A stretch of 64,000 bases of DNA from Acidobacteriota bacterium (GCA_965217775.1 CBDCJH010000002.1:1216001-1280000), one strand, 5' to 3'. Positions 29,319 to 52,924 are shown, numbered from the stretch's first letter. Notes: generated by a model from the letters alone, not told the origin. Numbers and translations are program-made.

Positions 29319-29322
29319 GGGA

Positions 29323-30168: not shown

Positions 30169-30219
30169 GACACCTATTGGATGCATCGTCCCCCGAAAAG
30201 GGTCTCGATCACTTCCACT

Positions 30220-31206: not shown

Positions 31207-31261
31207 CCGGGCGCCTTCCCGGTTTCGGTGGGCGGCAGGAGATTCACGACGGAATTTCCGA

Positions 31262-35014: not shown

Positions 35015-36764
35015 TCTCGCTGACGATCCGGCCGCTGCCCGCCTGTAGTGTCGTATAGCGGTCCACGGGGAGATCGATCCACTCTTCCACACCGCTGCCG
35101 GGCCAGGAGACGCGGACGGCTTTTACCCGGTTCCGGCTTCCCAGCCCGACCAACACCCGGGGATCGTTGGCGGAACCGTAGCTGCCGTCGGTTCTCACAC
35201 GCCGTAGCAGGGTGGGACCGTCAGGGAAGACCACTTCCACTCGGGCTCCCAACATGTCTCGTGGGATGTCTCCTCCCAGCAGTCTCAAACCCAACCAGTG
35301 ACGGCGGGTCCCCACGTTGTTGATGAGCAGCCGGGCCGGGCCGTTGTTGTTGACGATCAGCACGTCCACGTCTCCATCGTTGTCGATGTCCCCAAAGGCG
35401 CCGCCGCGGCTCACCTCGGAGAGCTTGAATACGGCTCCAGCCTGTTGGGTAACCTCCTCGAAACGTCCGTTTCCCAGGTTATGGAAGAGCTGGTTGGGCT
35501 GATGCAATGGATAGGGGTCTCGCAGTTTTTCCAGGGCCTCGATGGTCGCAACATCCCCGTGCAAGGCCAGAATGTCCAGCCAGCCGTCGTTATCGTAGTC
35601 CAGGAAGGCGGTCCCGAACCCGGTGTAGGGCATGCTCGCGACTCCCAATTCGCTCTCGAAGGTCTGATCTTCAAACCATCCCTGCCCATTGTTGAGGTAG
35701 AGCGTATTGGTTTCCCGGATCAGATGGGTCATGAAGAGATCTTCGTCGCCGTCGTTGTCCAGGTCTCCGGCGTCGACTCCCATGCTGGCCTCGGTTTTGC
35801 CGTCCCGGTTCAGGGCGCAACCGGCCACCAGTGCTTCTTCCCGGTAACTGCCGTTTCTCTGGTTGATCCACAAGTGATTGGGACGTTGATCGTTGGCGAC
35901 ATAGAAATCGATCCAGCCATCTCCATTGAAGTCGGCGCTCACGACGCCCAGGGCGCCGCCGTGCCTGGTGGCTACGCCGGTTTGGGAGGATACGTCCTGA
36001 AATCTTCCATCACCAAGGTTGCGATAGAACCGGTTGGACTGGGCCGGGTAACTCCGGGGCCCACAGTAGTCTATGGCTCCCGTACTGGAGTAGCACTTCT
36101 TGGGATTGGACAGCCGGTAGTCCACGTAGTTGCCCACGAACAGGTCCAGCCAACCGTCTCGATCGTAATCCAGAAAGGAGGCACTCACGCTCCACGCCGT
36201 ATCGGCGCCGTCACCCATGGGGACCTCGGTGAAGGTGCCGTTGCCGTTGTTCCGATACATTCGGTTCTTGCCGAAGTTGGTGACGTAGAGGTCGACCCAG
36301 CCATCGTTGTCGATGTCCCCCGCCGCCGCCCCCATTCCGTAGCCGATCGAAACGATTCCGCTCTGCGCGGTCACGTCGGTAAAGCGCAAGTTGGGCGTCC
36401 CGTCCGGGTTCACGTTCAAATCGTTTCGAAAGAGCCGGTCTCGGAGTGGAGGCTTTTCCGGCGGCGAAAAGAGGGCGTCGTTCAGTGTCTTGTCCGGTCC
36501 CAGCATCTGGCCTTGCACCAGGTAGACGTCCAGATCGCCGTCGTTGTCGTAGTCGAAGAGGGCGCCTCCGGGGCCCATCATTTCGCAGAAGTAATACTCT
36601 CCGGACATTCCGTTGAAGTGGCGGAAGTCGATTCCGACAGCCTGGGCGACGTCCTGGAACAAATCGGTGCCGGCGTCGCCAGTCTTGGATGGGTAAGCCG
36701 GTGACGTGCAGAACCCCAAGGTCGTGAGACCGATCAGCAGGATCAGCCGATTGAGTTGTGACAT
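35007..36764 (-). CDS. CRTAC1-family / ASPIC-UnbV FG-GAP (VCBS) beta-propeller protein A
   Basis: Repeated D(Y/F/I)D(N/R)DGxxD Ca-binding FG-GAP motifs, SRGGAFGDIDNDGD, C-terminal GARV..GSYGSAND....GLG...V.WP (ASPIC/UnbV). Start placed at MSQLN; the ORF-track extension runs into the MITE. Confidence 0.9.
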   Translation of the reverse strand: MSQLNRLILLIGLTTLGFCTSPAYPSKTGDAGTDLFQDVAQAVGIDFRHFNGMSGEYYFCEMMGPGGALFDYDNDGDLDVYLVQGQMLGPDKTLNDALFSPPEKPPLRDRLFRNDLNVNPDGTPNLRFTDVTAQSGIVSIGYGMGAAAGDIDNDGWVDLYVTNFGKNRMYRNNGNGTFTEVPMGDGADTAWSVSASFLDYDRDGWLDLFVGNYVDYRLSNPKKCYSSTGAIDYCGPRSYPAQSNRFYRNLGDGRFQDVSSQTGVATRHGGALGVVSADFNGDGWIDFYVANDQRPNHLWINQRNGSYREEALVAGCALNRDGKTEASMGVDAGDLDNDGDEDLFMTHLIRETNTLYLNNGQGWFEDQTFESELGVASMPYTGFGTAFLDYDNDGWLDILALHGDVATIEALEKLRDPYPLHQPNQLFHNLGNGRFEEVTQQAGAVFKLSEVSRGGAFGDIDNDGDVDVLIVNNNGPARLLINNVGTRRHWLGLRLLGGDIPRDMLGARVEVVFPDGPTLLRRVRTDGSYGSANDPRVLVGLGSRNRVKAVRVSWPGSGVEEWIDLPVDRYTTLQAGSGRIVSENE

Positions 36765-36860
36765 TGAACCGGGAAAGGATTCGTTGAGAGTCGTGATCTT
36801 AGCAGTCCGCGCACGATGCAGGGACAGTCGAATGCCGTGACGACTTTGGCCACGGGCTGC

Positions 36861-37025
36861 TAGGAGCCTGCGCGGCAGAAATTGATCTACTGCGAAAGCG
36901 GTAGAATCGGTCCATATTTCCTCGATTTCTCGGCGAATAGAACAACTATGCACCTCCAAATCGAGAAAATCTGGCCTCGATTCCCCACTTTCTCGCTACG
37001 ATCATTTCTACCGCGCAGACTCCTA
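36861..37025. mobile_element. 165-bp MITE, copy 1
   Basis: Imperfect terminal inverted repeats TAGGAGCCTGCGCGGCAGAAAT / ATTTCTACCGCGCAGACTCCTA, with CTAG at both ends; near-identical copy at 56490..56654. Confidence 0.85.
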
Positions 37026-38672
37026 GCCACCCTTGACTTGGAAGCTGTCTCCGACCTGAGTCCTGGCATCGTTGAGCTGATCCCAGGCTTGGACTTCCAT
37101 CCGGTAGGTTCCGGGTTCCAGACCCCTCAGGAGAAACCCCTTGACCAGGACCAGTCTCTCCGGCGAGAAGAACTGAATCGACTCCCCGTTGTTGTCGGTG
37201 GTTTCGTGAACGAGGTCGCCGCCGCGGCTGATTCGGTAACGCACCTGCAAATTGGGAGCATTGGAGGATTGATCCAAACCGAAATTGTACAAGTGCAGGT
37301 AAACCGCAAGAAGAGACTTCTCGGAAAAGCTCTTGTCCATGCTGGGCCGTATCTTGACGTCTCCCAAAACGAACATCTGGTTGTCTTCCGGTACCACGTC
37401 CAGCTTGCGGATGAAGTCGGAAAGAATGAGCGAACTGTTGCTTAGTTTCTCTCCTTCCTTCAAGCTCGGCGGAGGAATGATGGCTTGTTTGACGGCGCCG
37501 ATGTTGCTGCTTTCGATGTCCTTCACGACCAGATCGAGTTTATAGCGGGTCTTGTTGTCCAGAATCAGGACTTTCTGGTACATTGATCGACCCTGCAAAC
37601 TCCTCTCCAGCACCTCCGGTGCGTAGGAGATCACCAGTTCATCGTCGAATTCCTGGATCAGTTGATTGTCCAGGCTGGTCACGGCGCCATAGAGGCCGAT
37701 TCGAGCCGAATGCAAATTCCCTTTGCGCTTGAAGGTCATGTCCTTGTTCTGGAGCTGCAGGGTCACGGGAACCAGAATCTTCTGCCGGTTGAGCTTGAAG
37801 TAGTCGCTTCGAGCCTGGAAAGCGAGGTTTGAATAGCCGATGTTGATCTTCACCAACTCCTTCAGATCGTTGTACTTGATCTTTTTCGGGGTCTGTACGT
37901 TGGAAAAAATCTCGTACCGGTAGAAGGGGTTGTTTCTGAAGCTGCCGGTGTTGTAGGCGGGGTTGTGCCGTCCCGGAGAAAAATAAGGGCGATCCTCTTT
38001 TCGGGTGAGACCCACTTGCTCGGACCAGGTCAGGCCCTGTCCCGGCATGTGCAGCAGCGCATCCTTTTCTTCCGGATTGAGAGCCAGGTGGTAGTCCCCC
38101 GTGAAGGAGTTGTCCACGAATTCCAACTCGATGTCGTCTCCAATGCCCTCCAGGTGCCGGTAGCGCCACCGTTCGAATGGATAGACGGTCGTCTGTCCAC
38201 CACCCTGTTCGAATTCCCGGTCGTAGAAACTTCCTGCGGCATAGGACTCTATTTCGGCCGGTTCCCCGTGAATGATGTAGATTCTGCCCCGATCCGAGCG
38301 CCAACCCTCTTTGCCGGAGTGGAATCGCTCATTGGCATAGGCAATCCGCCGATAGTGTTCTTCCTTGAACTCGTTGAGCGCCGTCCGGGGATCGGGATCC
38401 CGCCGGCGCCAGAACTGTTCGATGAAGCGCTCCTTTTCGTCCTCCGTGGTCAGGCTTCCAAAAACCGACTTCTCCTCGTCCGAAATAATGTAGACGGCAT
38501 CCCGTTCCAGCCAGTTCTTGAAATAGTCCTCACTCTCCTCACGCCGGACGTCGGGATTGACTTTTTCCTTTTTCGCCATCGCAGAAATGGACAGCCCCAG
38601 CGACAGAAGCATCAGAAGGGGAAGGAATATATGGTGCACGGCTCTGAACCTTTGTTTCAATGGAGACCTCAT
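37023..38672 (-). CDS. GWxTD domain-containing protein
   Basis: W...D..YII..EE, FIEQFWRRRDP, EHYRRIAYANE.F, GWRSDRGRIYIIHGEP, FERWRYR. Start placed at MRSPL (ORF extends to 38750). Confidence 0.9.
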   Translation of the reverse strand: MRSPLKQRFRAVHHIFLPLLMLLSLGLSISAMAKKEKVNPDVRREESEDYFKNWLERDAVYIISDEEKSVFGSLTTEDEKERFIEQFWRRRDPDPRTALNEFKEEHYRRIAYANERFHSGKEGWRSDRGRIYIIHGEPAEIESYAAGSFYDREFEQGGGQTTVYPFERWRYRHLEGIGDDIELEFVDNSFTGDYHLALNPEEKDALLHMPGQGLTWSEQVGLTRKEDRPYFSPGRHNPAYNTGSFRNNPFYRYEIFSNVQTPKKIKYNDLKELVKINIGYSNLAFQARSDYFKLNRQKILVPVTLQLQNKDMTFKRKGNLHSARIGLYGAVTSLDNQLIQEFDDELVISYAPEVLERSLQGRSMYQKVLILDNKTRYKLDLVVKDIESSNIGAVKQAIIPPPSLKEGEKLSNSSLILSDFIRKLDVVPEDNQMFVLGDVKIRPSMDKSFSEKSLLAVYLHLYNFGLDQSSNAPNLQVRYRISRGGDLVHETTDNNGESIQFFSPERLVLVKGFLLRGLEPGTYRMEVQAWDQLNDARTQVGDSFQVKGG

Positions 38673-38878
38673 CGAGTCCGGCCCGGTGCAACCTAGTTTA
38701 GGCAAGATCCGATTGGGGATCAACGATGCGGATCGACCCACATCATCCACGATGACGTCGCCGCGACTTGACCGGTTTGTCCGTCAGCCCGCAGGATGGG
38801 TTCAGTGGCAGCAATTTTCAGCCAGCTCGAGGCAAACTGTGCTGTCGGAAATCTCTTTGTCTTGAAGGTGTTAAGAAG

Positions 38879-41164
38879 GTGAAGCCGGGTAGGTCGAGTC
38901 GACCCTTACAGCGGAGACTCAAGGCTGCCGTTAATTTCCCCCTGCTAGCGGGGGCCCTATTCAGCTTGAATTGGATCGCGTGTACGCAATCGGACCCGCC
39001 CCCGCCCCCTTCGCCGGCTCTAGATTCCAGCTCTGAAGAAACCGTGGAAACCCAGGTGCCCGAGCCTCCGGGCAGCTTGACCTTTACCCGGGACATCGCG
39101 CCCATCGTCTTCCCGAATTGTTCCCCATGTCATCGCCCGGGCGGAGCGGGTCCGTTCGATCTGCTCAGCTACGACGACGTCAAAACGCGGGGCCGGTTGA
39201 TGGTCGCGGTCACAGAGAGTCGTTTCATGCCTCCCTGGCAGCCCGAACCCGGTTTCGGCGAATTCAGCGGCGAACGCCGGCTCAGCGATGATCAGATCGA
39301 AGTGCTTGAGAAGTGGGTGGCGCAAGGATCGGTCGAAGGAGATCCGGCCGACCTGCCCAGTGTCCCGAAGTGGCCGACGGGATGGCTGCTGGGGCCGCCG
39401 GATCTGATTGTGACCATGCCCCGGCCGTACACGCTGGCCGCCGAGGCCAGCGCGGCGGGGAAGGACGTGTTTCGTACCTTCGTGCTGCCGGTTCCACTGG
39501 AATCCATGCGTTACGTTCGCGCATTGGAGTTGAGACCCGGAAATCCCAAGATCGTGCATCACATCGTGGGAGGCGTCGACCCCACGCCTCGCTCCCGGCA
39601 ACGCGACCGACAAGACGACATGCCCGGATTCGATGGGATGAGATCCACTCAGACGGCTCGTCCTCCCGGGGGCCATATCCTGGTCTGGACGCCCGGAAAG
39701 GTCCCCACGGAGAACCCTGAGGGCTTGGCTTGGGGACTACGGGAGGGGACCGACCTGGTGTTGGAACTGCACATGCAACCGTCTGGTAAACCGGAACGGG
39801 TTCAGCCCAGCGCCGGTCTTTATTTCAGCGACGAAGCACCCACCAAGATCCCCTTCATCCTGATTCTGGGGTCCGTTGCCATCGATATTCCGGCGGGCAG
39901 CAAGAACCACTGGATTGAAGACAGCTACGTACTGCCGGTGGACGTGCAGGTGATGGGCTTGTATCCGCACGCCCATTTCCTGGGCAAGCAGATGGAGGTC
40001 TCCGCACGCTTTCCCGACGGGAGTCGGCGCTGGCTCCTCCATATCAAGGATTGGGACTTCAACTGGCAGGACGATTACGTCTATGCCGAGCCCGTCGCGC
40101 TCCCGCGCGGCACCCAATTGACCATGCGCTACAGCTACGACAACTCGGCCGGCAACGTTCGCAACCCTCACAATCCCCCCCGGCGCGTGGTCTACGGCCC
40201 CAATTCCTTCGATGAGATGGGTGAGGTGTGGATCCAAATGCTGACCCGCGACCAAAGCGACCGGGAAACGCTGCAGAGCGATTATCGCCGCAAACAACTC
40301 GACTTGGGCATCGCCGGCTTCCGGCATTCATTGGACACGAAACCCCAGGACGCCAACACCCATCTGCAGTTGGGTCAGGCGCTCTACGCTCAGGGAAAGA
40401 TCGGGGAGGCCATCGAGCACTATCGCCAGTCGCTGGACTTGCATCCTTCCAGCGCCGAGACGCATGCCTACCTGGCCAATGCCCTGATGCAACAGGACGA
40501 CCCGGAGGGAGCGGTTCGCCACTATTCTCTGGCATTGGAGATCAAACCGGATTTTGTCGAAGCTCGCTTGCATGCTGCCAACTCGCTGATGGGGCTCGGA
40601 AAACACGCACCAGCGGAAGGGCACTATGCGCGAGTCGTCGCATTGAACGGCGGACACGCCTTCGCCCGCTTCATGCAGGCCATGGCACTGATCCGGCTGG
40701 GCCGCTACCAGTCCGCCCGGTCCCGGTTGGAAGAGAGCCGCCGGGCGCTGCCTGAAGATATCGATATCACTCACGCCCTGGCCCGGCTCTTGGCAGCGGC
40801 TCCCGACAGCAGCGTCCGCAACGGACCGCTGGCGCTGCAGCTCTTGCAGAAGGTGTTCCAAGCCCAGAAGGAAATCTCCTTCGAACACGTGGAAACGCTG
40901 GCGATGGCCTTTGCGGAAACGGGGCAATTCCAGCGAGCGGTCCAGATGCAGCAGGCCATGATCGAGGACGTCAGCCGAGGTGGGCGTAGGGATCTTGCCG
41001 AATTGCTACGAGAGAACCTGGGGCGGTATCGCCGGGGACAGCCCTGCCGGAGCCCCTGGAGGGCGGACGATCCGGTCTTTTCACCGCGTCCAGGCGAATG
41101 GACTCCGCTGGAGTCTCCCGCCGGTGCGAGCCGGGGGCAGATCCCGACCCCAGCGGGTCGTTAG
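38879..41164 (+). CDS. Predicted lipoprotein: c-type cytochrome + copper type II (PHM/DBH-like) monooxygenase + TPR, copy 1
   Basis: Lipobox-like WIAC; CSPCH (39119-39133) and MPPW; VHH (His at 39557-39562), ELHM, HAH (39968-39976), DEM (Met at 40217); WDFNWQ; TPRs and the shared C-terminal module. GTG start chosen by similarity to the paralog start at 45032. Confidence 0.82.
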   Translation: MKPGRSSRPLQRRLKAAVNFPLLAGALFSLNWIACTQSDPPPPPSPALDSSSEETVETQVPEPPGSLTFTRDIAPIVFPNCSPCHRPGGAGPFDLLSYDDVKTRGRLMVAVTESRFMPPWQPEPGFGEFSGERRLSDDQIEVLEKWVAQGSVEGDPADLPSVPKWPTGWLLGPPDLIVTMPRPYTLAAEASAAGKDVFRTFVLPVPLESMRYVRALELRPGNPKIVHHIVGGVDPTPRSRQRDRQDDMPGFDGMRSTQTARPPGGHILVWTPGKVPTENPEGLAWGLREGTDLVLELHMQPSGKPERVQPSAGLYFSDEAPTKIPFILILGSVAIDIPAGSKNHWIEDSYVLPVDVQVMGLYPHAHFLGKQMEVSARFPDGSRRWLLHIKDWDFNWQDDYVYAEPVALPRGTQLTMRYSYDNSAGNVRNPHNPPRRVVYGPNSFDEMGEVWIQMLTRDQSDRETLQSDYRRKQLDLGIAGFRHSLDTKPQDANTHLQLGQALYAQGKIGEAIEHYRQSLDLHPSSAETHAYLANALMQQDDPEGAVRHYSLALEIKPDFVEARLHAANSLMGLGKHAPAEGHYARVVALNGGHAFARFMQAMALIRLGRYQSARSRLEESRRALPEDIDITHALARLLAAAPDSSVRNGPLALQLLQKVFQAQKEISFEHVETLAMAFAETGQFQRAVQMQQAMIEDVSRGGRRDLAELLRENLGRYRRGQPCRSPWRADDPVFSPRPGEWTPLESPAGASRGQIPTPAGR

Positions 41165-41268
41165 CACTGATAGTGCTGTCGGGCCACGCTGCAGCCTGTA
41201 TCGATGGTTTGGGAGAGGGGCAAGCCCGGTATGGGAGGAGGAGGCGTGCAACCTCCGACTCCCGGAAA

Positions 41269-41292
41269 AGGGGGACAAGAATGTCCCCCCTC
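41269..41292. repeat. REP-like palindrome / possible bidirectional terminator between convergent genes
   Basis: AGGGGGACAAGAATGTCCCCCCT hairpin next to the TonB receptor stop codon. Confidence 0.45.
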
Positions 41293-41294
41293 CT

Positions 41295-44200
41295 TTACCA
41301 AGCGATCCTTAGCCGGAACTGAATAATTCGGGCGAGGGCCGTGTTTCTATATCGTCCGAAGGCGCTTGGATTCGCGAGGGAATAACTCGGCGAATAGAAC
41401 TGCGCGCGGTTGAAGATATTGAAGATCTCCGTCCCAAACTCCAGGCGCACGCCCTCCGTGACCTGGAAGTCCTTCAGAATCGACAGGTTTTCGGTCGAAT
41501 ATCCGAACCTGCGAACATCCGGCAACTGGTTGGTATCGGCAAAGCCGATCACCCGGTTCTCAGGTGCAAATGCTGCCACGTTGAGCGTATTTTTCTGTGA
41601 ACCGTTGGGATCATACGCCCCATGGCTGACCCCGCCTCCTACGGATGAACCCGTGCGATTGACACGACCCAAGTTGATGGGATCGCCCGACATGTAGTTG
41701 TGCCAACCCATGACCCGCCATCTCCCGATGAGATGATTGAGCACGGTGGAGGCGTCGGCACCCCATCGCTGCCCCCGGCCGAGGGGCAACTGCCAGGTCC
41801 AGGTCAAGGCCAAATTGTGGGCGCGGTCAAAGGGCACCAGGAAACGGACTCCGCTGCCTCCGTACCCCTCATGCGACACACCGGGCGCGCCGAATACACC
41901 ATAACCGTTGCCAGTGGCGATGTTCTTGGAGAGCGTATAGGCCAGCAGAAAACTGAGTCCGCCTCCAAAACGCTTCTGGGCACTGATGTTAGCGGCGTGA
42001 TACGAGGTAATTCCGCCGTGGGCGCCTCTCAGATTGACCCCCGTGTATTGGGGATACGGACGCGAAGCCTGCCGGACACTTCCAGTGAACCCCGCGTAGG
42101 GTACTTGGACTCCGGTCGCCATTCCCGCGGGGGACGATATTGGTTGATCGATGACCGGTCCCAGTCTGAAGATCCCCGGGGGCACCTCGTTGCGTTCCCA
42201 GTTCAGGCGGTAATGCCGGCCCAGTTTGCCGACGTAGTCCCCCTTGAGGAGGAGATTCCACCCGACCTCCCTTTCGAGGCCGAAGCCAAAGTTGTAGCTG
42301 GTGGTCCACTTATTGTCCTGGGGATGAATCCAGTGCACGGCGGTCCCGTTGGCCAGGGTCGGATCGAGGTTGGGAAGACTGCTGACAATCTGGAGTCCTT
42401 CGGCCGGAAACCCGTCGTTCCAGTTGAAGGCCGGGGTCACCCCGCCGTCAATTGAACTGTACGCCGGCTCGGCAGCCCAGCCCAGAGCCGCAACATTCCC
42501 ACCGCCCTGCAACTCGGCGCCCGGATTCGCGTAGGTGATTCCACTGTATGCTCGCAGCACAGTTTTGTCATCCAAGGCGTAGGCCAAGCCTATACGGGGT
42601 GACCAAGCGCCCCAATCCCGATCGTAGGCCCTGGTTCGACCGTTTCGCCCCGGTCCCTCGCCGTTGAAAGTCAAGGCGCCCAAACGTCCGTCCGCCCCAG
42701 CATTGGGAATGTCGGGACTGAAGTAGCCCATCCGATGATAGGTTTCGCCGAAGGGGGTCCACCAGTTGTATCGAAGCCCGTAGTTGACGGTCAGTTGGCG
42801 GGTGGCGCGCCACGTATCCTGCAAATAGATGGCATAGACGCGATTGTTCACTCTTTTGTTATCAGACGGCCTCATGAAGGCGGTGTTCACTTCCCCCAGC
42901 AGGTAGCTGGCCCAGCCACGGCCTGTCAGCGCGATATCGGGGAACGCGGAGACGTTGCCGTCTGCGCCCATCTGATTGCCGCCGGCCAGTCCCGTCGTGA
43001 TGTCGCTGAAGGTGAAATTGCCGTTGGTGAAAATCTGGACGTTCCGTCCCACGGCGGCGTATCTGCCCTGGATTCCGAACTTGTAGTTGTGGCTCCCTTT
43101 GACCCAGGTCAGATCCGTATAAACCGGGTACGTGAACTCGGGCATGAAGAGATTCAGGAAGAGGAATCCAAACCCGGAGGCGCCCTGGATGTTGGTAAAA
43201 GGAGTATCGGGTGTCACCAAGCCGGTAAGCCCCGAATCCCGGCCGTGCGTGTTGCCCGGCTTGCCGATCTCCCGGGGGACTCCCTGGCCGGCAAAGCGCA
43301 CACTCAAAAGCAGATTGGGCCGCAGGGTGAAGTAATTCGAGAACCGAAAGCGGTACTGTTTGCCCAGCGTCAGGTGGGTCGTGTTGATCAACTGGTCATA
43401 GCCGGCGTTCCCGGGCCAGACGACATCCTTCCTGTGCCAGTCCATCCCAAAGGACAGCTTATAGCTATCGGTAATCTTGTGGTCCGTCTTCAAGGTCAGC
43501 TTGTCGATGTCCTGCTCGCCCTTGTCCAGCGGACCGATATGGTTGTCCACCGTGCCCGGCTGGTTGGGCATTGGGATACTGTCCTGAAAAGCGGTCGAAA
43601 TGGAGCTGAGGCGGTTGCTAGGAATGACGTTGCCTGGAAATGGATCGCGGATGAAACCTCCATGTCCGTCCGGCCGAGTGGAGGCCGGATCATAGATCTG
43701 CCCCTGCATAATCGGTCTCCCCAGGACGTCGGTCCCAATTTGCGCTCCCAGGAACTCGCTGAAATCCCCGCCTCGCATCAACGACGTGGCGACGGTCGAG
43801 GTCTGGCCACCGGCGGTCCTGCGTTCGCGGTACCCGGTATAGCTGACCAGGAAAAAGTGCTTGTCCTTGATGATCCGCCCGCCCACAACAGCTCCAAACT
43901 CGTTCTGCCGGTGGGGGTTGACATCTGTGGCGAACCATTGCCGGGCGTCCAGAACGTCGTTTCGAAAGTACTCGAAAAGGCTGCCGTGGAACTCGTTGGT
44001 TCCCGACTTCATGACCATTTCCACACTCGATCCCATATTCCAGCCGTGCTCGGCGTTGACGTTGGCCACCGTCCGAAACTCGCTGATGACTTCGGGAATC
44101 AGCCCCGAGTCCTCTCTCATGCCGAAGTTGTTGGCGGGACTGGAGTAGATCCCGTCGATATTGGTGCTCATGACTCCCACCACGCCGTGGACGTAGCCCC

Positions 44201-44747
44201 GGTCGGTGGTGTCGGTTTCCTTGCCGTAGGGATCGTAAGAGAAACCGGGCAACGTCCGAGTGTAGGACAGACTGTGCCGGGCCCCCTGGTTGACTGCCAT
44301 CGGCAGTTCCTCGATCTCCTCGACAACCCTGGTGAGGCCTGAGCTGGAGGACTGGTTGTCGACAGCCAGGGCTTGGCTTTCCACCGTCACGGTGTCGACC
44401 ACTTCTCCAATGGGCATGGTGATGTCGAGCGTCACTGCCAGTCCGGACACGACGCGCACGCCCACTTGTTCAACCGTCTTGAAACCAGGGAGACTTGCGC
44501 TGATCGTATAGGAGCCGATCGGCAGGGCTGGAAAAGAGTAGTCTCCCGCCTCGCTGCTGACGGTAGCGGTCTCGAGGCCAGTCGCTTCATCGCGGGCCGT
44601 CACGTCGACGCCCGGAATCCGCGCCCCCGTCTCGTCGACGACGGCCCCCGCAATCCTGCCCAGATTGTCCTGGGCCGATACCGGGAGGGATACCAGAAGC
44701 AGAATCAGCGGTAGGATGATCCTGACGGAAGATAGAAAAGACTGCAT
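41295..44747 (-). CDS. TonB-dependent receptor, Oar-like with N-terminal carboxypeptidase-regulatory-like domain
   Basis: Signal peptide; G.V.D.TGA.IPG..V, KSGTNEFHGSLFEYFRN..LDAR, NEFG..VGG, YLQDTWR....LT.NYGLRY, terminal ARIIQFRLRIAW beta-signal. AAGGAGG SD before MQSF. Confidence 0.92.
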   Translation of the reverse strand: MQSFLSSVRIILPLILLLVSLPVSAQDNLGRIAGAVVDETGARIPGVDVTARDEATGLETATVSSEAGDYSFPALPIGSYTISASLPGFKTVEQVGVRVVSGLAVTLDITMPIGEVVDTVTVESQALAVDNQSSSSGLTRVVEEIEELPMAVNQGARHSLSYTRTLPGFSYDPYGKETDTTDRGYVHGVVGVMSTNIDGIYSSPANNFGMREDSGLIPEVISEFRTVANVNAEHGWNMGSSVEMVMKSGTNEFHGSLFEYFRNDVLDARQWFATDVNPHRQNEFGAVVGGRIIKDKHFFLVSYTGYRERRTAGGQTSTVATSLMRGGDFSEFLGAQIGTDVLGRPIMQGQIYDPASTRPDGHGGFIRDPFPGNVIPSNRLSSISTAFQDSIPMPNQPGTVDNHIGPLDKGEQDIDKLTLKTDHKITDSYKLSFGMDWHRKDVVWPGNAGYDQLINTTHLTLGKQYRFRFSNYFTLRPNLLLSVRFAGQGVPREIGKPGNTHGRDSGLTGLVTPDTPFTNIQGASGFGFLFLNLFMPEFTYPVYTDLTWVKGSHNYKFGIQGRYAAVGRNVQIFTNGNFTFSDITTGLAGGNQMGADGNVSAFPDIALTGRGWASYLLGEVNTAFMRPSDNKRVNNRVYAIYLQDTWRATRQLTVNYGLRYNWWTPFGETYHRMGYFSPDIPNAGADGRLGALTFNGEGPGRNGRTRAYDRDWGAWSPRIGLAYALDDKTVLRAYSGITYANPGAELQGGGNVAALGWAAEPAYSSIDGGVTPAFNWNDGFPAEGLQIVSSLPNLDPTLANGTAVHWIHPQDNKWTTSYNFGFGLEREVGWNLLLKGDYVGKLGRHYRLNWERNEVPPGIFRLGPVIDQPISSPAGMATGVQVPYAGFTGSVRQASRPYPQYTGVNLRGAHGGITSYHAANISAQKRFGGGLSFLLAYTLSKNIATGNGYGVFGAPGVSHEGYGGSGVRFLVPFDRAHNLALTWTWQLPLGRGQRWGADASTVLNHLIGRWRVMGWHNYMSGDPINLGRVNRTGSSVGGGVSHGAYDPNGSQKNTLNVAAFAPENRVIGFADTNQLPDVRRFGYSTENLSILKDFQVTEGVRLEFGTEIFNIFNRAQFYSPSYSLANPSAFGRYRNTALARIIQFRLRIAW

Positions 44748-44813
44748 TGCAACGTCCTCCTTAGGGACGGAATGTGACTGGGCGGAAAGAGGCTTCCTCA
44801 AGTTGAAGCGGAA

Positions 44814-44841
44814 GCTATACGATTCCGTCAGCAAAAGTCAA
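44814..44841 (-). promoter_or_regulatory. Possible sigma70 promoter of the TonB-dependent receptor
   Basis: On the minus strand: TTGACT, 16-nt spacer, TATAGC. Confidence 0.3.
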
Positions 44842-45031
44842 GCAAACAACTCCTCCGGACTTTCGCAATTTTTTGGAGATTCACGAGAACAGGTGAAGCG
44901 GATTCGCTCGCGTATCGGGACGAGGCGGCCCATTACCGGGGGGACGACCAAACAGGAAACTGCCGGATCCCGGCCGCAATCACGTAGAATCGGGAATCAG
45001 GCATCTCAGTAACCTGCTCGGGGGTAAAACG

Positions 45032-47062
45032 GTGAAGCTGTACAGGCCGGATCGACCCTTTCGGAAGAGACCCAAAGCAGTCGTTGTCTTTCCGCTCTTG
45101 ATGGGGGCATGGCTATGCTCGACTTGGATGGGATGCATACAATCCGACTCTCCCGCGACAGCCCCGCCACCTCCGGATTCAAAGCTTGAAGCAGTACTGG
45201 AAACCTATGTGCCCCGGCCGGCCGGCAGCTTGACCTTCAACCGGGAGATCGCTCCCCTGGTGTTCGAGAGCTGCGCACCCTGTCACCGCCCGGGGGGCGC
45301 AGGGCCATTCAACTTGCTCGGCTACGCAGACGTCAGCCGCCGGGCCAACCAGATCGTGACCGTCACGCAGAGTCGTTACATGCCTCCGTGGCAACCCGAG
45401 CCGGGCTACGGGGAGTTCATCGGGGAGCGCCGACTGAATGTGGACCAGATCGGCATGCTGGCGCAGTGGGTGGCTGAGGGGGCGATCGAAGGGAATCCGG
45501 CAGACTTGCCCAAGGTGCCGGAATGGCCGACTGGCTGGCACTTGGGGCAACCGGATCTGGTCCTCACCATGCCGCGGCCTTATACGCTTGCGGCCGATGG
45601 ACCGGACGTCTTCCGGATGTTCATCATACCGGTTCCTCTGGCGTCGAACCGCTTTGTACGAGCCTTGGAATTACGGCCCGAAAACCCAAGGGTCGTCCAC
45701 CATGCGGTAGGACTGGTCGACACGACCCTTCGCAGCCGGCAATTGGATGAAGAAGATCCCATTCCGGGTTTCGAAGGCATGAGGTCCACGGAGTTCGCTC
45801 GCGCCCCCGATGGCCGTTTCCTGGGTTGGACACCAGGCAAGGTTCCAACAGAGAGTGCCGAAGGGAGGACGTGGCGGTTGAAAAGAGGGGCCGACCTGGT
45901 GCTGGAACTGCACATGATGCCCTCCGGCAAACCGGAACTGATTCAGCCCAGCGTGGGGCTGTATTTCAGTGACGAGGCCCCGGCCAGGACCTCCTTCATC
46001 GTCGGACTGGGCTCCCAGACCATCGACGTTCCCCCGGGAGAGAAGGAATACTGGATCGAGGACAGTTATGACCTGCCGGTGGCGGTGCAGGTTCTGGGCG
46101 TTTACCCGCATGCCCACTACCTGGGGAAGCAGATGCGCGCTTTTGCACAGCTTCCCGACGGCAGCCGGCACTGGCTCGTTCATATCAAGGAGTGGGACTT
46201 CAATTGGCAGGACGAATACGTCTACCGTGAGCCGATCTCTCTCCCCCGCGGAACCCGGCTGACCATGCAATACAGTTACGATAACTCGGTCGGCAACCTG
46301 CGAAATCCCCAAAACCCGCCTCAGCGGGTGGTTTACGGCCCCAATTCCAGCGATGAGATGGGTGACCTGTGGCTCCAGGTATTGACGCAAAACAGGAACG
46401 ACTTGCTGACCCTGCAAGCCGACTACCGGGTCAAAGATCGAGACAGGTTCATTGCCGGCTACCGGCATGCCTTGAAGATCAAGCCGGAGGATGCCCAAAC
46501 GCACGACCACTTGGGCCAAGTGCTGCAGGCGCAGGGAATGGTTGAGGATGCCATCCGCCACTATCGCCAAGCGCTGGAAATCCGTCCCGTTTACGCGGAA
46601 ACCCACAGCAATCTGGCGACCGCCCTGATACAGCAGGGTCATACCGAGGAGGCGATTGACCACTATGGCCGGGCCCTTAAAATCAAACCGGACCTGCTTG
46701 AAGCCCACTACAATCTGGGCGGAGCCCTGTTGTCCATCGGACGCACCAGCCAAGCCATTGCCTCCTTGCGGCGAGCTATCCAAATCGAGCCCGAGTTTGC
46801 CAGGGCACACAACAACCTGGGCATCGCCTTCGCTCAGCAGGAAGACTTGGCCCGGGCCCTATACCATTTTGAGCGGGCGGTGAGGATCGATTCGGACTTT
46901 GCAGAGGCCCGCAACAATCTTGGCAATGCACTTCTCTCCTCGGGGGATTTCAGCCGGGCCGTTTCTGAATATCGGCGCGCCCTGGAGATCGACCCCAGCT
47001 ACGCCGATGCCGAGCGCAACCTGAAGCTGGCACAGGAACTGCTGCTGACTTCCCCCCAATGA
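45032..47062 (+). CDS. Predicted lipoprotein: c-type cytochrome + copper type II (PHM/DBH-like) monooxygenase + TPR, copy 2
   Basis: Lipobox-like WMGC; CAPCH (45272-45286), MPPW, VHH, ELHM, YPHAHYLG, SDEMGDL; five to six canonical TPRs. Confidence 0.82.
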   Translation: MKLYRPDRPFRKRPKAVVVFPLLMGAWLCSTWMGCIQSDSPATAPPPPDSKLEAVLETYVPRPAGSLTFNREIAPLVFESCAPCHRPGGAGPFNLLGYADVSRRANQIVTVTQSRYMPPWQPEPGYGEFIGERRLNVDQIGMLAQWVAEGAIEGNPADLPKVPEWPTGWHLGQPDLVLTMPRPYTLAADGPDVFRMFIIPVPLASNRFVRALELRPENPRVVHHAVGLVDTTLRSRQLDEEDPIPGFEGMRSTEFARAPDGRFLGWTPGKVPTESAEGRTWRLKRGADLVLELHMMPSGKPELIQPSVGLYFSDEAPARTSFIVGLGSQTIDVPPGEKEYWIEDSYDLPVAVQVLGVYPHAHYLGKQMRAFAQLPDGSRHWLVHIKEWDFNWQDEYVYREPISLPRGTRLTMQYSYDNSVGNLRNPQNPPQRVVYGPNSSDEMGDLWLQVLTQNRNDLLTLQADYRVKDRDRFIAGYRHALKIKPEDAQTHDHLGQVLQAQGMVEDAIRHYRQALEIRPVYAETHSNLATALIQQGHTEEAIDHYGRALKIKPDLLEAHYNLGGALLSIGRTSQAIASLRRAIQIEPEFARAHNNLGIAFAQQEDLARALYHFERAVRIDSDFAEARNNLGNALLSSGDFSRAVSEYRRALEIDPSYADAERNLKLAQELLLTSPQ

Positions 47063-47120: not shown

Positions 47121-48935
47121 ATGTGCTCTCAGCGAGGGAGTCCCTGGGGCATCCTGGTCATTTGGGCTCTACTGAACGTCTCTCTGGCCCAGGGTCCACA
47201 GCAGGCCGTCGGTCCGGGGCAGCATGAAGGAGATTCGGCAACCAGTGATATCTTCCTGGATGCGACGCGGGCAGCAGGGATCGATTTCGTCCACTTCAAC
47301 GGCATGTCGGGGGAACGCTATCTCTGCGAAATGATGGGCCCCGGTGGAGCCATGTTCGATTATGACAACGACGGCGATCTCGACCTCTATCTGATTCAGG
47401 GTCAAATGCTCGGACCGGGGAAAACTCTTGCCGATGCGGTCTTCCCCCCGCCCAACTCCGAATTGCTGATCGACAGGCTCTACCGAAACGACCTGCAGAC
47501 GCACAAATCGGGAAGACGCCGTCTGCACTTTACGGACGTGACGGAGGAAGTGGGGATCGAGGCACGGGGCTACGGGATGGGCGTGGCAACGGGAGACTTC
47601 GACAACGATGGCTGGACCGACCTCTACCTGACCAATTTCGGGCCCAACCAGTTGTTTCGAAACAATGGAGATGGAACCTTTACCGATGTGACCGGGGCAA
47701 CCGGCACGGATGACTCTCGCTGGAGTGTCAGCGCGGCTTTCCTGGACTACGACCGGGATGGCTGGCTGGACCTTTACGTGGGCAACTACGTCGACTTCAG
47801 CTTCTCCAATCACAAGCGCTGCTTCTCTTTCGCTGATGCCGGCAGCGGGAGTGCCCTCGAGTACTGTGATCCCAGCCAATACGAACCGTTGCCTGAGAGC
47901 CTGTTCCGCAACCGGGGCGATGGAACCTTCGAAGATGTGTCCCACAAGGCAAGAATTGCCCGGGAATCAAATGGGGCATTGGGCGTGAGTACGGCCGACT
48001 TCAACGGAGATGGCTGGATCGACATCTATGTCGCCAATGACAAGAGGCCAAATCACCTTTGGATCAATCAGACGGATGGCAGTTTTCGGAACCAGGCTCT
48101 GCTGGCCGGTTGCGCAGTAAGTGGGGAGGGTTTTTCCGAGTCCAGCATGGGAGTGGACGCCGGTGACTTTGACAATGACGGAGACGAAGACCTCTTCATG
48201 ACACACATGTCGCTGAACGAGAAGAACACCCTCTATGTCAACCAGGGAGAGGGATCGTTCGAGGATGCCTCCTACCTGAGCGGGCTCGCTCTTCCCAGCA
48301 TTTCTTTCACCGGGTTCGGAACCGCATTTTTCGATTACGACAACGATGGCAGGCTGGACATTATGGCTGCCAATGGACACGTCAAAAGGGTTGAGGGGCT
48401 GGCACGGGCCAAAGACCCTTATCCATTGCACCAAACCAATCAACTGTTCAGGAATATGGGGAAGGGACAGTTTCAAGAAGTGACCCAAGCCGCCGGGGCC
48501 GTGTTCGAGCTGTCCGAAGTGAGTCGCGGAGCGGCATTTGGCGATGTCGACAACGATGGAGACACGGATGTTCTGGTTCTCAACAACAGCGGGCAAGCGC
48601 GGCTGCTGACCAATCAGGTCGGAAGCGGCAACCATTGGATGGGACTGAGGTTGGTCGGCCGGCCTTCGGCACGAGACCTGCTGGGCACCAGAGTGGCTGT
48701 CCTGCTATCCCAGGGCCGAACCTTGTGGCGCCGGGTCCGCTCGGACGGCAGCTATGCCTCCGCCAATGATCCCAGAGTGCTGGTCGGACTGGGTGGAGAC
48801 ACTCAGGTCGAGGCGGTGCGAGCTTACTGGCCCGACGGTCGAGCAGAAGAATGGAAAAAAGTTCCGATCGATACCTACTCGAGACTGCGTCAAGGCAGCG
48901 GGACCCGACTGTCTTTGCCACCGGAGCATCGATAG
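47121..48935 (+). CDS. CRTAC1-family / ASPIC-UnbV beta-propeller protein B (close paralog of A)
   Basis: Signal peptide; HFNGMSGE.Y.CEMMGPGGA.FDYDNDGD shared with A; FG-GAP repeats; GSYASANDPRVLVGLG. Confidence 0.9.
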   Translation: MCSQRGSPWGILVIWALLNVSLAQGPQQAVGPGQHEGDSATSDIFLDATRAAGIDFVHFNGMSGERYLCEMMGPGGAMFDYDNDGDLDLYLIQGQMLGPGKTLADAVFPPPNSELLIDRLYRNDLQTHKSGRRRLHFTDVTEEVGIEARGYGMGVATGDFDNDGWTDLYLTNFGPNQLFRNNGDGTFTDVTGATGTDDSRWSVSAAFLDYDRDGWLDLYVGNYVDFSFSNHKRCFSFADAGSGSALEYCDPSQYEPLPESLFRNRGDGTFEDVSHKARIARESNGALGVSTADFNGDGWIDIYVANDKRPNHLWINQTDGSFRNQALLAGCAVSGEGFSESSMGVDAGDFDNDGDEDLFMTHMSLNEKNTLYVNQGEGSFEDASYLSGLALPSISFTGFGTAFFDYDNDGRLDIMAANGHVKRVEGLARAKDPYPLHQTNQLFRNMGKGQFQEVTQAAGAVFELSEVSRGAAFGDVDNDGDTDVLVLNNSGQARLLTNQVGSGNHWMGLRLVGRPSARDLLGTRVAVLLSQGRTLWRRVRSDGSYASANDPRVLVGLGGDTQVEAVRAYWPDGRAEEWKKVPIDTYSRLRQGSGTRLSLPPEHR

Positions 48936-49005
48936 AGCTCGGTTCGAGCAGACTTGGCTGATCCTGAAACCGCCCCACGCGACCCGATCAAGGGACCAAC
49001 TGAAC

Positions 49006-50163
49006 TCACTGGGGCTTTCCCTGCAGGAAGTCTCCAGCATCGCGCTGCTTCTTTTCTCGGGCTTGCGTGTCCAGTTTCTGAAACAGCTCCAGTTCTCGTT
49101 GAGCTTCTTCCATCCGTCCGAGCTTCTTATAGATTTGGGCCAATTGATAGTGGGATTGCGGTTGGCTCGGATCCAAGGCGATCGCTCTCTGCAACGCCGC
49201 CACACCATCCTGTAGCCGTCCTTTGGCCGCGTAGGCAGCGGACAATGCGACGTAAGCATCAGGAATCTGATCATCTACGCGCGATACCGCCTCCAAATGC
49301 CGAATCGCCTGGTCGAACTCCTGGCGGTAGTTCTTGATGATTCCCAACTCGAGATTGACGATCGGATGGTGGGGATCGATCTTCCACTCCTTCTCCAGCG
49401 CCGGCTCCGCCTTGTCGTACTGTCCCAAACCAAAATAGAGATCGCCCAGGGCGAAGTTGACTCCGGGCGCGTTCGGATTCAGAGCGACCGCTTTCTCGTA
49501 TTCTTCGATGGCCTGGTTCAGACGTCCCTGGGTGGCATAAGCCTCCGCCAGAAGTTGGTGGGTACGAAAGGAATCCGGATCGATCTCTTCGATACGGGAG
49601 AAAGTCTCCTGGAATTTGTTGTACGAGGTCCTGGTCCGGTTCAAGTAAGCCTGGGCCAATGTCTGCAGTGCTTCCAGTTCCTGAGGATGTTTCTCGATGA
49701 CCGCTTCCAGGCGCTCGATACTCTTGCCGATCTGTTGCAGAGCCAAAAAACAGACCCCCAGATAGACTTGGGCCTTTACGTTTTCGGGATTCTGGGAAAT
49801 CGCTTGTTGGAATGACTCGATAGCCTTCTGATACTCATACAGGCTGTAGTAAGCGAGCCCCAGAAAGAAATGGGCATCGGGCAGCTTAGGGTCGAGTGTC
49901 AGGGCCTTCTCGATCGACTCGACGGCTTCCCCAAACCTCCCCTGAAACTGATAGATCAATCCCAATTTGGCATGAAGGGGCGGGAAATTGGGTTGGATCT
50001 CCAGCGCTGACCGATAGGCCTGTTCAGCGGTACTCCAGTCGCCACTTTCCTCGGCGCGAGCGGCACTCTGGAGGTATTCCTGAACCTCTGGAAGCATTTG
50101 GCCTGCCGTCGAGGTCGCCTGCCCCCCCAGCAATGTCAGAAGTAACAAACTATGAAGCACCAT
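49006..50163 (-). CDS. Secreted TPR protein B
   Basis: Signal peptide MVLHSLLLLTLLGG; ~9 TPRs; C-terminal HYQLAQIYKKLGR.EEA..EL..F..L. ORF extends to 50271. Confidence 0.83.
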   Translation of the reverse strand: MVLHSLLLLTLLGGQATSTAGQMLPEVQEYLQSAARAEESGDWSTAEQAYRSALEIQPNFPPLHAKLGLIYQFQGRFGEAVESIEKALTLDPKLPDAHFFLGLAYYSLYEYQKAIESFQQAISQNPENVKAQVYLGVCFLALQQIGKSIERLEAVIEKHPQELEALQTLAQAYLNRTRTSYNKFQETFSRIEEIDPDSFRTHQLLAEAYATQGRLNQAIEEYEKAVALNPNAPGVNFALGDLYFGLGQYDKAEPALEKEWKIDPHHPIVNLELGIIKNYRQEFDQAIRHLEAVSRVDDQIPDAYVALSAAYAAKGRLQDGVAALQRAIALDPSQPQSHYQLAQIYKKLGRMEEAQRELELFQKLDTQAREKKQRDAGDFLQGKPQ

Positions 50164-50286
50164 TATTAGGGAGACTCCCCAAGTATGAAGTGAAATGTCT
50201 GGCTGCTGATATCCTTTTTTCGATGCTGAATTAACAGTGAATCTCGAGGCCTCCGTACCCGGTGAGTTCAACTCGGCTTCTACAGG

Positions 50287-52758: not shown

Positions 52759-52924
52759 CGTTTCATCTACGGGGGTTCGGAGAACCGCTCCGTGACGGGG
52801 ATAGGATCTTCTTTTTTGGCGAGTCTGGCAAGGTCAATTGCTACGGGGCGAACCTTCATCCATAGCACCGGGACAGCCGTCAAGGAACAGCCTCTCGACT
52901 CCTCCCGGTGGTATTCTTCTGGGA

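Follow-up and report, generated by a model that had tools for sequence, protein, structure and literature searches.

Two paralogous genes, A and B, in a 64,000-nucleotide stretch of acidobacterial DNA (hereafter the window) are best explained as encoding exported, heme-fed dicopper enzymes of the PHM/DBH type, built from three modules: a cytochrome c, a two-copper core and a TPR tail. We give this reading a probability of about 0.6. We accept that each protein joins a cytochrome c to a dicopper core of the PHM/DBH type, with metal and heme binding predicted from the sequence, and the electrons probably come from the built-in heme rather than from ascorbate (vitamin C). A and B are members of a bacterial family that is very large and unstudied; a literature search found no description of it.

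The Gene Pair and Its Surroundings

Paralog A (38879..41164, plus strand) is 761 residues long when read from a GTG at 38879, lies within an enclosing open reading frame of 38768..41164 and has a Pfam TPR match, along with weak matches to PF13442 and PF03712 in its N-terminal part. Paralog B (45032..47062, plus strand) is an open reading frame of 676 residues that also starts with GTG. The two proteins are 57% identical across 675 residues in a pairwise comparison. Between them, on the minus strand, is a gene (41295..44834, 1179 residues) identified by its open reading frame and Pfam matches as encoding an outer-membrane protein with a CarboxypepD_reg domain and a large β-barrel that resembles a TonB-dependent receptor. 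A and the barrel gene have their 3' ends 130 nt apart, and the start of B is 197 nt from the 5' end of the barrel gene. The open reading frame coordinates thus bear out an earlier sequence-only reading of this DNA, which had described two paralogs flanking one barrel gene, one convergent with it and one divergent from it.

That reading also called the middle gene a TonB receptor. The large outer-membrane barrel stands, with matches to PF25183 (E = 7.7e-167) and, for the CarboxypepD_reg domain, PF13620 (E = 2.6e-19). However, the TonB-receptor barrel model PF00593 is matched just under its cut-off (26.9 bits against 27), and no Plug domain was found by Pfam, even at E ≤ 10 on residues 130–300.

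Divergent from A is a gene for a GWxTD-domain protein (37023..38750, minus strand; TIGR04514, E = 2.3e-32), which is found at the same place in seven complete syntenic loci. At 58 nt from the 3' end of B and on the same strand is a gene for an FG-GAP β-propeller/UnbV_ASPIC (CRTAC1-like) protein (47121..48935, plus strand), and a second FG-GAP/UnbV_ASPIC gene (35007..36959, minus strand) lies on the A side of the cluster, both assigned by Pfam. All three paralogs in the genome adjoin PF25183 barrels. Since the genome contains about 50 genes of the barrel family and 45 ASPIC matches, some adjacency to barrels and ASPIC genes is expected by chance, and the neighboring genes give no clue to the substrate.

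Heme and Copper Motifs

Both proteins carry the motifs CxxCH, MPPW, VHH, LELH, PHAH and DEMG in this order, just as had been noticed before. In A, the heme c attachment motif CSPCH (39119–39133) and the MPPW motif with its candidate axial Met (39227–39238) define a heme span of 39119..39238 from their positions and their invariance in the family. The candidate copper-ligand motifs VHH (39554–39562), LELH (39761–39772), PHAH (39965–39976) and DEMG (40211–40222) follow in a span of 39554..40222, aligned with the PHM ligand motifs via the family profile. All of these motifs are on the plus strand, as are those of B.

B begins with a signal peptide that includes a conserved Cys (45032..45136; ..STWMGC), a possible lipoprotein signal judging by the sequence, with the same N-terminus in two relatives (L001 and L008). 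A predicted monoheme cytochrome c domain at about residues 65–150 (45224..45481; PF13442, E = 0.0014–0.0019; helical segments 69–148 in the structural model) contains CAPCH (45272–45286; C81, C84 and H85 invariant) and MPPW (45380–45391; M117 invariant). Two PHM-like β-sandwiches come next. The N-terminal one, corresponding to the CuH subdomain (45539..45976; PHM profile alignment and β strands 176–313 in the model), holds VHH (45695–45703) and LELH (45902–45913), with candidate CuH ligands H223, H224 and H294. The C-terminal one, corresponding to the CuM subdomain (45989..46396; PHM profile alignment, model and conservation), holds PHAH (46106–46117) and DEMG (46352–46363), with candidate CuM ligands H360, H362 and M443, as well as two family-specific invariant motifs, WDFNWQ (46193–46210) and YDNS (46277–46288). 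The TPR tail at about residues 465–676 (46424..47059) matches Pfam TPR families, e.g., TPR_11 at E = 1.5e-50.

The conservation counts cover 272 domains, drawn from 267 proteins. CxxCH is intact in 267 of these domains, the remaining five being N-terminal gaps, and M117 is kept in all 272. The candidate CuH ligands H223, H224 and H294 are kept in 269, 272 and 271 domains, respectively, and the candidate CuM ligands H360, H362 and M443 in 271, 272 and 271. Neither an alignment of 60 sequences nor a cross-phylum one of 35 sequences, which reaches down to 33% identity, shows any variation at these positions, and the pattern in A and B is therefore not due to chance. With each candidate copper ligand kept in 269–272 domains and aligned with the PHM ligand motifs, the claim that all six are intact holds.

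Relationship to PHM and DBH

A family profile made from 35 trimmed cores was searched against the PDB. It matched 10 distinct PHM sequences with E-values from 1.6e-7 to 1.3e-5; profile positions 123–386 aligned with chain residues 22–272, so that both subdomains are covered. PHM was the sole enzyme family matched; the next matches, to cytochromes c (E = 0.15 and 0.43), lay at the CxxCH stretch, and DBH was absent among the matches at E ≤ 10. The six ligand positions (HH/H and HxH/M) align with PHM VHHM, QVHY, HTHHLGK and DEMC. Homology of the core to PHM, as the sequence-only reading had proposed, is thus supported by a profile match at E = 1.6e-7 across both subdomains. Searches of the PDB with single sequences returned only noise.

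Pfam covers the dicopper core only below threshold, with A and B alone scoring 14.2 and 13.1 bits against the core models (cut-off 23). A scan of each of the 35 members at E ≤ 0.1 matched PF03712 in 29 and PF01082 in 4 and gave no competing enzyme family. The ESM Atlas clusters of one homologue are automatically named Cu type II monooxygenase C-terminal domain, and 27–37% of their members carry PF03712. A confident AlphaFold2 model of B residues 1–463 (pLDDT 89.3, pTM 0.83) consists of a helical block followed by β-rich blocks at 176–313 and 321–452.

PHM is peptidylglycine α-hydroxylating monooxygenase, which amidates peptides in animals (PDB 1PHM, 1OPM, 1YJK and others). Its CuH (HH...H) and CuM (HxH...M) motifs match residue for residue, and the HxHxLGK and DEM contexts are shared as well. 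Unlike PHM, A and B are bacterial and apparently secreted via a signal peptide, and their family has an N-terminal c-type cytochrome, in many cases a TPR tail or a fused redoxin, and the additional invariant motifs WDFNWQ and YDNSxxNxxNP. Dopamine β-hydroxylase (DBH), tyramine β-monooxygenase and MOXD1/2 (PF01082 + PF03712) belong to the same two-copper core family and likewise have an extra N-terminal domain, DOMON. A and B lack DOMON, and the CxxCH cytochrome c occupies its position. Some DOMON domains of other proteins bind heme. Copper nitrite reductases that carry a tethered cytochrome c domain are a functional analogy only: they share the covalently fused monoheme cytochrome c, which would supply single electrons to copper within one polypeptide, but they have an unrelated cupredoxin fold and unrelated chemistry, and none of the searches here gave a sequence relation to them.

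Predicted Heme Domain and Export

PF13442 matches 32 of the 35 members at E ≤ 0.1 in the per-member scan. It exceeds its cut-off of 27 bits in homologues P0023 and P0121 (36 and 34.1 bits); A and B score 18.9 and 15.5 bits. The genome encodes a Ccm system, with three PF01578 matches that include a 668-residue CcmF-like and a 251-residue CcmC-like frame 5 kb apart; ResB was looked for in the genome and not found. Taken with the invariant CxxCH and Met, these matches agree with the proposed built-in c-type heme domain at the N-terminus, where heme binding is predicted.

The N-termini of A and B are signal-like: a hydrophobic core accompanies a basic n-region. The A/B clade conserves the Cys that comes after the signal peptide, in a lipobox that is non-canonical at −3 (WIAC in A, WMGC in B) relative to the pattern [LVI][ASTVI][GAS]C after the h-region, and the third paralog of the genome has LAAC at this position. 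A lipobox-like motif is present in 95 of 226 usable relatives (37 strict, 58 loose), while the 131 without one partly reflect miscalled starts. Such features suggest that A and B are secreted, probably facing the periplasm and possibly lipid-anchored. Dependence on ascorbate would be unexpected in the bacterial periplasm.

Proposed Mechanism

The predicted scheme, from heme and metal binding through the electron path and O2 chemistry to the substrate and the role of the TPR tail, would run as follows. The first module, a class-I-like monoheme cytochrome c, would carry heme at CxxCH, the candidate axial ligands being His85 and Met117, and would be reduced by a periplasmic carrier. It would then hand single electrons to CuH, in place of the ascorbate of the animal enzymes. 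In the second module, a non-coupled two-copper core, CuH would be held by H223, H224 and H294 and CuM by H360, H362 and M443, and CuM would bind O2 and hydroxylate a C–H bond of the bound substrate. The TPR tail would form the third module. The conserved ligands are, as a separate observation, equally compatible with a non-hydroxylating copper redox role.

It is very improbable that A and B are copper-handling or pure electron-transfer proteins, whose His/Met sites would serve in trafficking, oxidation or relay with no oxygenation of a substrate. Periplasmic copper proteins commonly have His/Met-rich sites, and the thioredoxin-fold neighbors of the family look like copper or heme maturation factors of the Sco/TlpA type; a SCO1/SenC-like domain occurs in one ASPIC gene within the window. 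However, this domain has no Cys, and hundreds of sequences preserve the PHM ligands and their spacing exactly in both subdomains, as is typical of a conserved catalytic site. Genomes with up to 14 matches to the family also fit substrate diversification better than metal trafficking.

Probable Substrate Pocket and TPR Tail

The peptidyl-glycine-binding residues of PHM, R240, N316 and Y318, correspond to Y358 (Y in 191 of 272 domains), D445 (D in 134, E in 74) and W447 (W in 180 of 272). By the PHM profile alignment and these counts, the glycine-carboxylate residues are replaced in the family. Because the carboxylate-binding residues are absent, the substrate should not be a peptidyl-glycine, and since the PHM substrate-binding residues are not kept, the chemistry could differ from that of PHM. 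Several non-ligand residues near CuM (W388, Q393, D417, N418, N422 and N425) are kept in 270–272 of the 272 domains, and the pocket is probably defined by the invariant family-specific motifs WDFNWQ and YDNSxxNxxNP.

The TPR tail had been proposed to select a protein or peptide substrate. This idea is weakened by the replaced residues and by the absence of a TPR-type tail in 26 of the 82 family genes at the fetched loci; many acidobacterial copies are open frames of only about 420–530 residues. It is more likely that the tail in the A/B lineage docks a partner protein than that it selects substrates across the family, and the co-encoded β-propeller/ASPIC protein and the barrel are candidate partners.

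A peptide or protein hydroxylase would use the same heme-fed dicopper chemistry, with the tail capturing a peptide or protein for hydroxylation at CuM. Possible substrates of this kind are the FG-GAP/ASPIC protein encoded alongside and an imported peptide. Peptide binding by TPR domains is known from many systems, and PHM itself acts on peptides. The close spacing of B and its ASPIC neighbor points the same way, and 18 of 77 loci have an ASPIC homologue close to the family gene. B also weakly matches the prolyl 4-hydroxylase TPR peptide-substrate-binding domain PF23558 (E = 0.00045, below cut-off), but this match sits among dozens of generic TPR matches. The tail-less genes and short frames, the loss of the peptidyl-glycine-binding residues and the disproportion between the ASPIC matches and only three of these enzymes in the genome all argue against such a hydroxylase, which we consider unlikely.

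The Redoxin Partner

The commonest partner of the family across phyla is a thioredoxin-fold redoxin (AhpC-TSA/Redoxin), directly upstream of or fused to 29 of the 82 family genes, in five phyla, an association that fits a periplasmic redox or maturation context. Most of these redoxins have CPxS and a C-terminal GC, not a classical peroxiredoxin or CxxC pair. No redoxin is adjacent to A or B; an orthologue is encoded elsewhere in the genome, beside FG-GAP genes.

So widespread a partner would suit a role in handling oxygen or peroxide, in which the heme-fed copper pair would reduce O2 or another small oxidant and the redoxin would deal with peroxide, the two proteins forming a periplasmic oxidant-scavenging or signalling pair. 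Uncoupled PHM-type sites release H2O2, and no gene related to a substrate is consistently linked to the family. However, the CPxS and GC redoxins could equally serve heme or copper maturation, and the invariant non-ligand residues near CuM suggest a defined substrate pocket, so that this role seems rather improbable.

Returning to the heme-fed dicopper enzyme, a bolder and tentative extension is that the family may represent an undescribed, widespread and ascorbate-independent bacterial oxidation system. In it, a periplasmic cytochrome c–dicopper monooxygenase would work with a thioredoxin-fold CPxS protein dedicated to it and, in some lineages, with TPR-docked β-propellers and outer-membrane barrels. 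A new class of substrates, either imported or at the cell surface, would be hydroxylated. If true, the family may be the prokaryotic stock of eukaryotic PHM/DBH, and its tethered heme would provide a ready-made way to trigger and time the long-debated electron transfer from CuH to CuM.

The family comprises 3,137 cluster representatives at E ≤ 1e-30. Its members are publicly named “tetratricopeptide repeat protein” or “mono/diheme cytochrome c family protein”, and for the TPR lipoproteins listed under such names, these miss the dicopper core of about 300 residues that is the conserved heart of the protein.

The two paralogs and the gene between them

Paralog A (38879..41164, + strand) lies in an open reading frame of 38768..41164, in which the start chosen by the sequence-only reading, a GTG at 38879, gives a protein of 761 amino acids. 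Paralog B (45032..47062, + strand) also starts with GTG and encodes 676 amino acids; the two proteins are 57% identical over 675 residues. Between them, on the minus strand, is a gene for a 1179-residue protein (41295..44834). By the ORF coordinates, A is convergent with this gene across a 130-nt gap and B divergent from it across 197 nt, as had been described. Predicted promoters and terminators between 38500 and 49100 were no more common than in shuffled sequence (2 versus 2.8 and 6 versus 9.7, respectively); operon structure is judged from gene spacing only.

Both N-termini run from a basic stretch through a hydrophobic stretch to a cysteine (..NWIAC in A, ..TWMGC in B). The heme and copper motifs listed earlier do occur in order in both proteins. 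In A, they are CSPCH (39119-39133), MPPW (39227-39238), VHH (39554-39562), LELH (39761-39772), PHAH (39965-39976) and DEMG (40211-40222), all on the plus strand. Their plus-strand counterparts in B are CAPCH (45272-45286), MPPW (45380-45391), VHH (45695-45703), LELH (45902-45913), PHAH (46106-46117) and DEMG (46352-46363).

The middle gene had been taken for a TonB receptor. Pfam finds a CarboxypepD_reg domain and an outer-membrane barrel (PF25183, E 7.7e-167). The match to the TonB-receptor barrel model falls just below threshold, and a Pfam search for a Plug domain detected none. By its sequence, the product is best called “TonB-receptor-like”.

Relation to PHM

PHM, DBH and related enzymes are textbook examples from animals; ascorbate is their reductant, and how electrons cross the long distance between their two coppers is still debated. 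At full length, A and B match only TPR repeats in Pfam. Their N-terminal 463-484 residues alone give sub-threshold matches, one per paralog, to Cytochrome_CBB3 (PF13442, E 0.0019 and 0.022) and Cu2_monoox_C (PF03712, E 0.03 and 0.069). An NCBIfam scan of the core gave no match, and a single-sequence PDB search returned only NrdI noise (E ≥ 0.41).

TPR proteins swamped the PDB search when the untrimmed alignment (A1) served as the profile, and an alignment of 35 trimmed cores (A2) was therefore built. Locus L069 was left out because of a stop codon within its match; this match (L069:8001-9146, from a Bryobacterales MAG) has one in-frame stop, which may reflect a pseudogene or a misassembly. PHM was the only enzyme that the trimmed profile retrieved from the PDB, with ten distinct sequences at E 1.6e-7 to 1.3e-5; the other matches below E 1 were two cytochromes c, aligned along the CxxCH stretch. 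The alignment spans both PHM subdomains and pairs the family's putative CuH and CuM ligand motifs with those of PHM: vHHa with VHHM, lqlHl with LQVHY, HaHylgk with HTHHLGK and tdemg with SDEMC. These PHM motifs supply the copper ligands of the enzyme: H107, H108 and H172 for CuH, and H242, H244 and M314 for CuM. At the sequence level, the PHM-like core suggested by the sequence-only reading is thereby upheld.

When the 35 cores were scanned one by one (E ≤ 0.1), PF13442 was found in 32, PF03712 in 29 (best 3.3e-6) and PF01082 in four (best 6.4e-4). Other matches were to the cytochrome c/heme-binding models PF14376 (six), PF00034 (six) and PF22297 (three), plus one stray, and PF13442 scores above its cut-off in two tandem-duplicated homologues. 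A copper-handling or pure electron-transfer protein is a rival reading that seems highly improbable. The AlphaFold2 model of residues 1-463 of B is confident (mean pLDDT 89.3, pTM 0.83); in it, a helical block (69-148) precedes beta-rich blocks at 176-313 and 321-452, the layout expected of a cytochrome c with two sandwiches after it.

The family differs from PHM in the residues around the substrate. R240, N316 and Y318 of PHM, which hold the glycine carboxylate, align with Y358, D445 and W447 of B. Among 272 family domains, the first of these positions is Y in 191, the second D or E in 208 and the third W in 180. Because these residues are replaced, the sequences argue that the family is not a peptide-amidating enzyme. 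In their place, it has CuM-subdomain invariants of its own, W388 and Q393 (WDFNWQ) and D417, N418, N422 and N425 (YDNSxxNxxNP), each kept in 270-272 of the 272 domains, which are likely to line a candidate substrate pocket.

Family size, conservation and distribution

A word-indexed search found at least 6,535 proteins at E ≤ 0.001 among 8,000 candidates scored. When the first 463 residues, which exclude the TPR, were searched exhaustively against representatives of 50%-identity clusters, 9,201 proteins matched at E ≤ 1e-10 and 3,137 at E ≤ 1e-30. The family is thus very large, and its motif conservation exceeds chance. The invariant columns of a 60-sequence alignment include, in B numbering, C81, C84, H85, M117-P119, H223, H224, H294, H360, H362, E442 and M443, and the same conservation is seen in 35 cores from genome loci of several phyla, with identity down to 33%. 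In 272 domains from 267 proteins aligned to the family HMM, CxxCH is present in 267 (the other five have N-terminal gaps) and M117 in all 272. The candidate copper ligands, said in the sequence-only reading to be intact in A and B, are kept throughout the family: H223 in 269, H224 and H362 in 272, and H294, H360 and M443 in 271.

By record title, carriers belong to Acidobacteriota (Bryobacterales, Terriglobia, Vicinamibacteria and Thermoanaerobaculia), Verrucomicrobiota, Planctomycetota (including the cultured Gemmata algarum JC673), Gemmatimonadota, Sumerlaeota and Bacteroidota, along with two actinobacterial MAGs. These phyla are abundant in soil and freshwater and in association with sponges. 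In a sample of Acidobacteriota, matches at E ≤ 1e-20 occur in 31 of 151 genomes, spread over 25 of 105 genera, and some genomes have as many as 14; the 31 include G024, which is unpublished.

In public records, family members are called just “tetratricopeptide repeat protein” or “cytochrome c family protein”. The ESM Atlas, entered via the homologue P0061 (the window protein and P0066 are not in the atlas), returned only the family's own clusters. Some of these bear the automatic name [quoted passage not shown], and 27-37% of their members have PF03712, so automatic pipelines already catch part of the copper-domain signal. A bacterial cytochrome c-PHM fusion was not found in the full-text literature, a search with subscription journals mostly outside its scope, and an earlier description is possible. 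Passages of PMC12164859 deal with animal PHM and DBM. The fold and the metal sites are already known; novelty lies in the built-in heme, in the partners and substrate, and in the bacterial setting.

The TPR tail and other architectures

In the genome loci analysed, the C-terminal extension is at least 142 amino acids long in 56 of 82 genes and at most 106 in the other 26, two of which stop at a contig end. Every extension scanned is TPR. Many acidobacterial copies in the phylum survey lie in open frames of only 420-530 amino acids. Tail-less copies mark the TPR tail as a lineage feature outside the catalytic unit. The proposal that it selects a protein or peptide substrate does not hold family-wide: missing from so many genes and short frames, the tail cannot select substrates for the family as a whole. 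A hydroxylase of peptides or proteins with the TPR as a substrate clamp is an unlikely rival, given the copies that do without a tail. In the reading preferred here, a hydroxylase of a substrate other than peptidyl-glycine, the tail would instead dock partners in this clade.

Another architecture is a tandem duplication with EF-hand tails. P0023, P0121, P0029 and P0032 (about 1,070 amino acids) have two tandem heme-copper units with EF-hand motifs after each; in P0023 and P0121 the cytochrome domain scores above Pfam's cut-off. The C-terminus of P0087 (531 amino acids, from a 2-kb contig) matches Sigma-70 region 4/HTH models rather than TPR, and may be a chimeric gene call.

Neighbouring genes

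An FG-GAP/UnbV_ASPIC (CRTAC1-like) gene starts 58 nt downstream of B, and a second one, with a GWxTD gene, is found on the A side. The order GWxTD-A-barrel-B-ASPIC is kept in seven complete loci of close relatives, an eighth being broken by a contig end. The genome of the window (G000) has exactly three family paralogs, the third followed on the same strand by two further PF25183 barrels. With about 50 PF25183/CarboxypepD_reg barrel genes in this genome (66 matches), it is unlikely by chance that all three enzymes would be beside one. The genome also has 45 UnbV_ASPIC matches, a family listed as an expanded paralog family in a passage of PMC3174227. Among 77 loci of other genomes, ASPIC homologues are near in 18, closely similar barrels in 13 and other CarboxypepD_reg proteins in five. 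The enzyme-barrel adjacency is not strong evidence of a shared pathway.

By their coordinates, many barrel and ASPIC genes of this genome lie within a few kb of one another. In the window, TPR-only genes adjoin ASPIC genes (33251..35092 with 35007..36959; 49006..50271 with 50287..52758), and TPR plus propeller, sometimes with a barrel, looks like a repeated cassette in the stretches 33251..36959 and 47121..54652. The gene at 50287..52758 (−) encodes an FG-GAP/UnbV_ASPIC protein of 823 residues whose N-terminus resembles SCO1/SenC (E 4.2e-9). A role for this SCO1/SenC-like domain as a copper chaperone was rejected: the first 260 residues of the protein have no cysteine, so the beta-propeller protein carries a degenerate thioredoxin fold.

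The commonest partner, absent from the window, is an AhpC-TSA/Redoxin-fold protein of about 190 amino acids with conserved CP(I/V)(S/A/C) and RIDDRY motifs and a C-terminal GC. It is encoded directly upstream on the same strand in 13 loci (L015:7300-7896 and 12 others), often with overlapping stop and start. Seven of ten N-terminal extensions tested (L064, L066, L070, L071, L041, L063 and L060) are in-frame redoxin fusions, as are the proteins P0187 and P0252. By HMM, a redoxin is fused or lies within 1.1 kb upstream in 29 of 82 family genes and 28 of 73 loci, from Acidobacteriota, Sumerlaeota, Gemmatimonadota, Planctomycetota and Bacteroidota. G000 has an orthologue (61% identity) away from A and B, at G000:C2:4506110-4506676 (L079:9099-9689; −), upstream of a 944-residue FG-GAP protein and beside an ASPIC gene. 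These patterns make the redoxin, the heme-copper enzyme and the FG-GAP/ASPIC proteins a loose recurring set. The redoxin may act in heme or copper-site maturation, peroxide handling or electron donation. The enzyme's recurrent association with it and with outer-membrane barrels suggests a periplasmic oxidative pathway that is so far unexplored. An O2- or peroxide-handling pair of enzyme and redoxin is another rival reading, somewhat less probable still than the peptide hydroxylase.

Proposed mechanism

We give a probability of about 0.6 to the whole of the following: an exported, heme-fed dicopper hydroxylase with TPR docking and a substrate that is not peptidyl-glycine. The enzyme would be exported and possibly lipid-anchored, with its heme attached by the Ccm system; CcmF/CcmC-like genes are present in G000. 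Electrons would pass from a periplasmic carrier to the heme and on to CuH, while CuM would activate O2 and hydroxylate the substrate. Homology to PHM, the conserved ligands and heme motif, the confident model, the maturation genes and the recurring neighbours are observed here; that the cofactors bind, how electrons travel, oxygenation, the substrate and the role of the TPR are inferred. If this is true, the bacterial branch would show how PHM/DBH chemistry runs without ascorbate. The built-in covalent heme donor would offer a self-contained, expressible model in which light or an electrode could start the supply of electrons, and a function would be assigned to a family with thousands of cluster representatives.

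RNA libraries and other genes of the window

In four metatranscriptome runs of one study, whose contigs could stem from DNA and give no ranking of genes, short contigs identical to B at a depth of 2-3 cover 45526-45788 (X2), 45526-45763 (X4) and 46654-46874 (X3), that is, three of the four runs. None was seen on A (39005-40608) in the four runs. This is no more than a hint that B's sequence is present in these libraries, and thin evidence of expression. In all four runs, one contig joins 37028 (end) to 41270 (start) with 31 other letters between, the shorter side being only 24 letters. The joint would skip the GWxTD gene and A, and may come from a related organism with another gene order.

Six kb from A, 32492..33142 (−) encodes a catechol/caffeoyl-CoA-type class I O-methyltransferase (PF01596, E 1.9e-25), a curiosity in that catecholamines are substrates of DBH-type enzymes. 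At 26515..31867 (+), four ORFs in a row (221, 713, 464 and 239 amino acids) have no Pfam match at E ≤ 1e-4. The gene at 19688..26293 (+) encodes a 2,201-residue protein with five SWM_repeat units, fn3 and Big_5, probably a giant surface protein.
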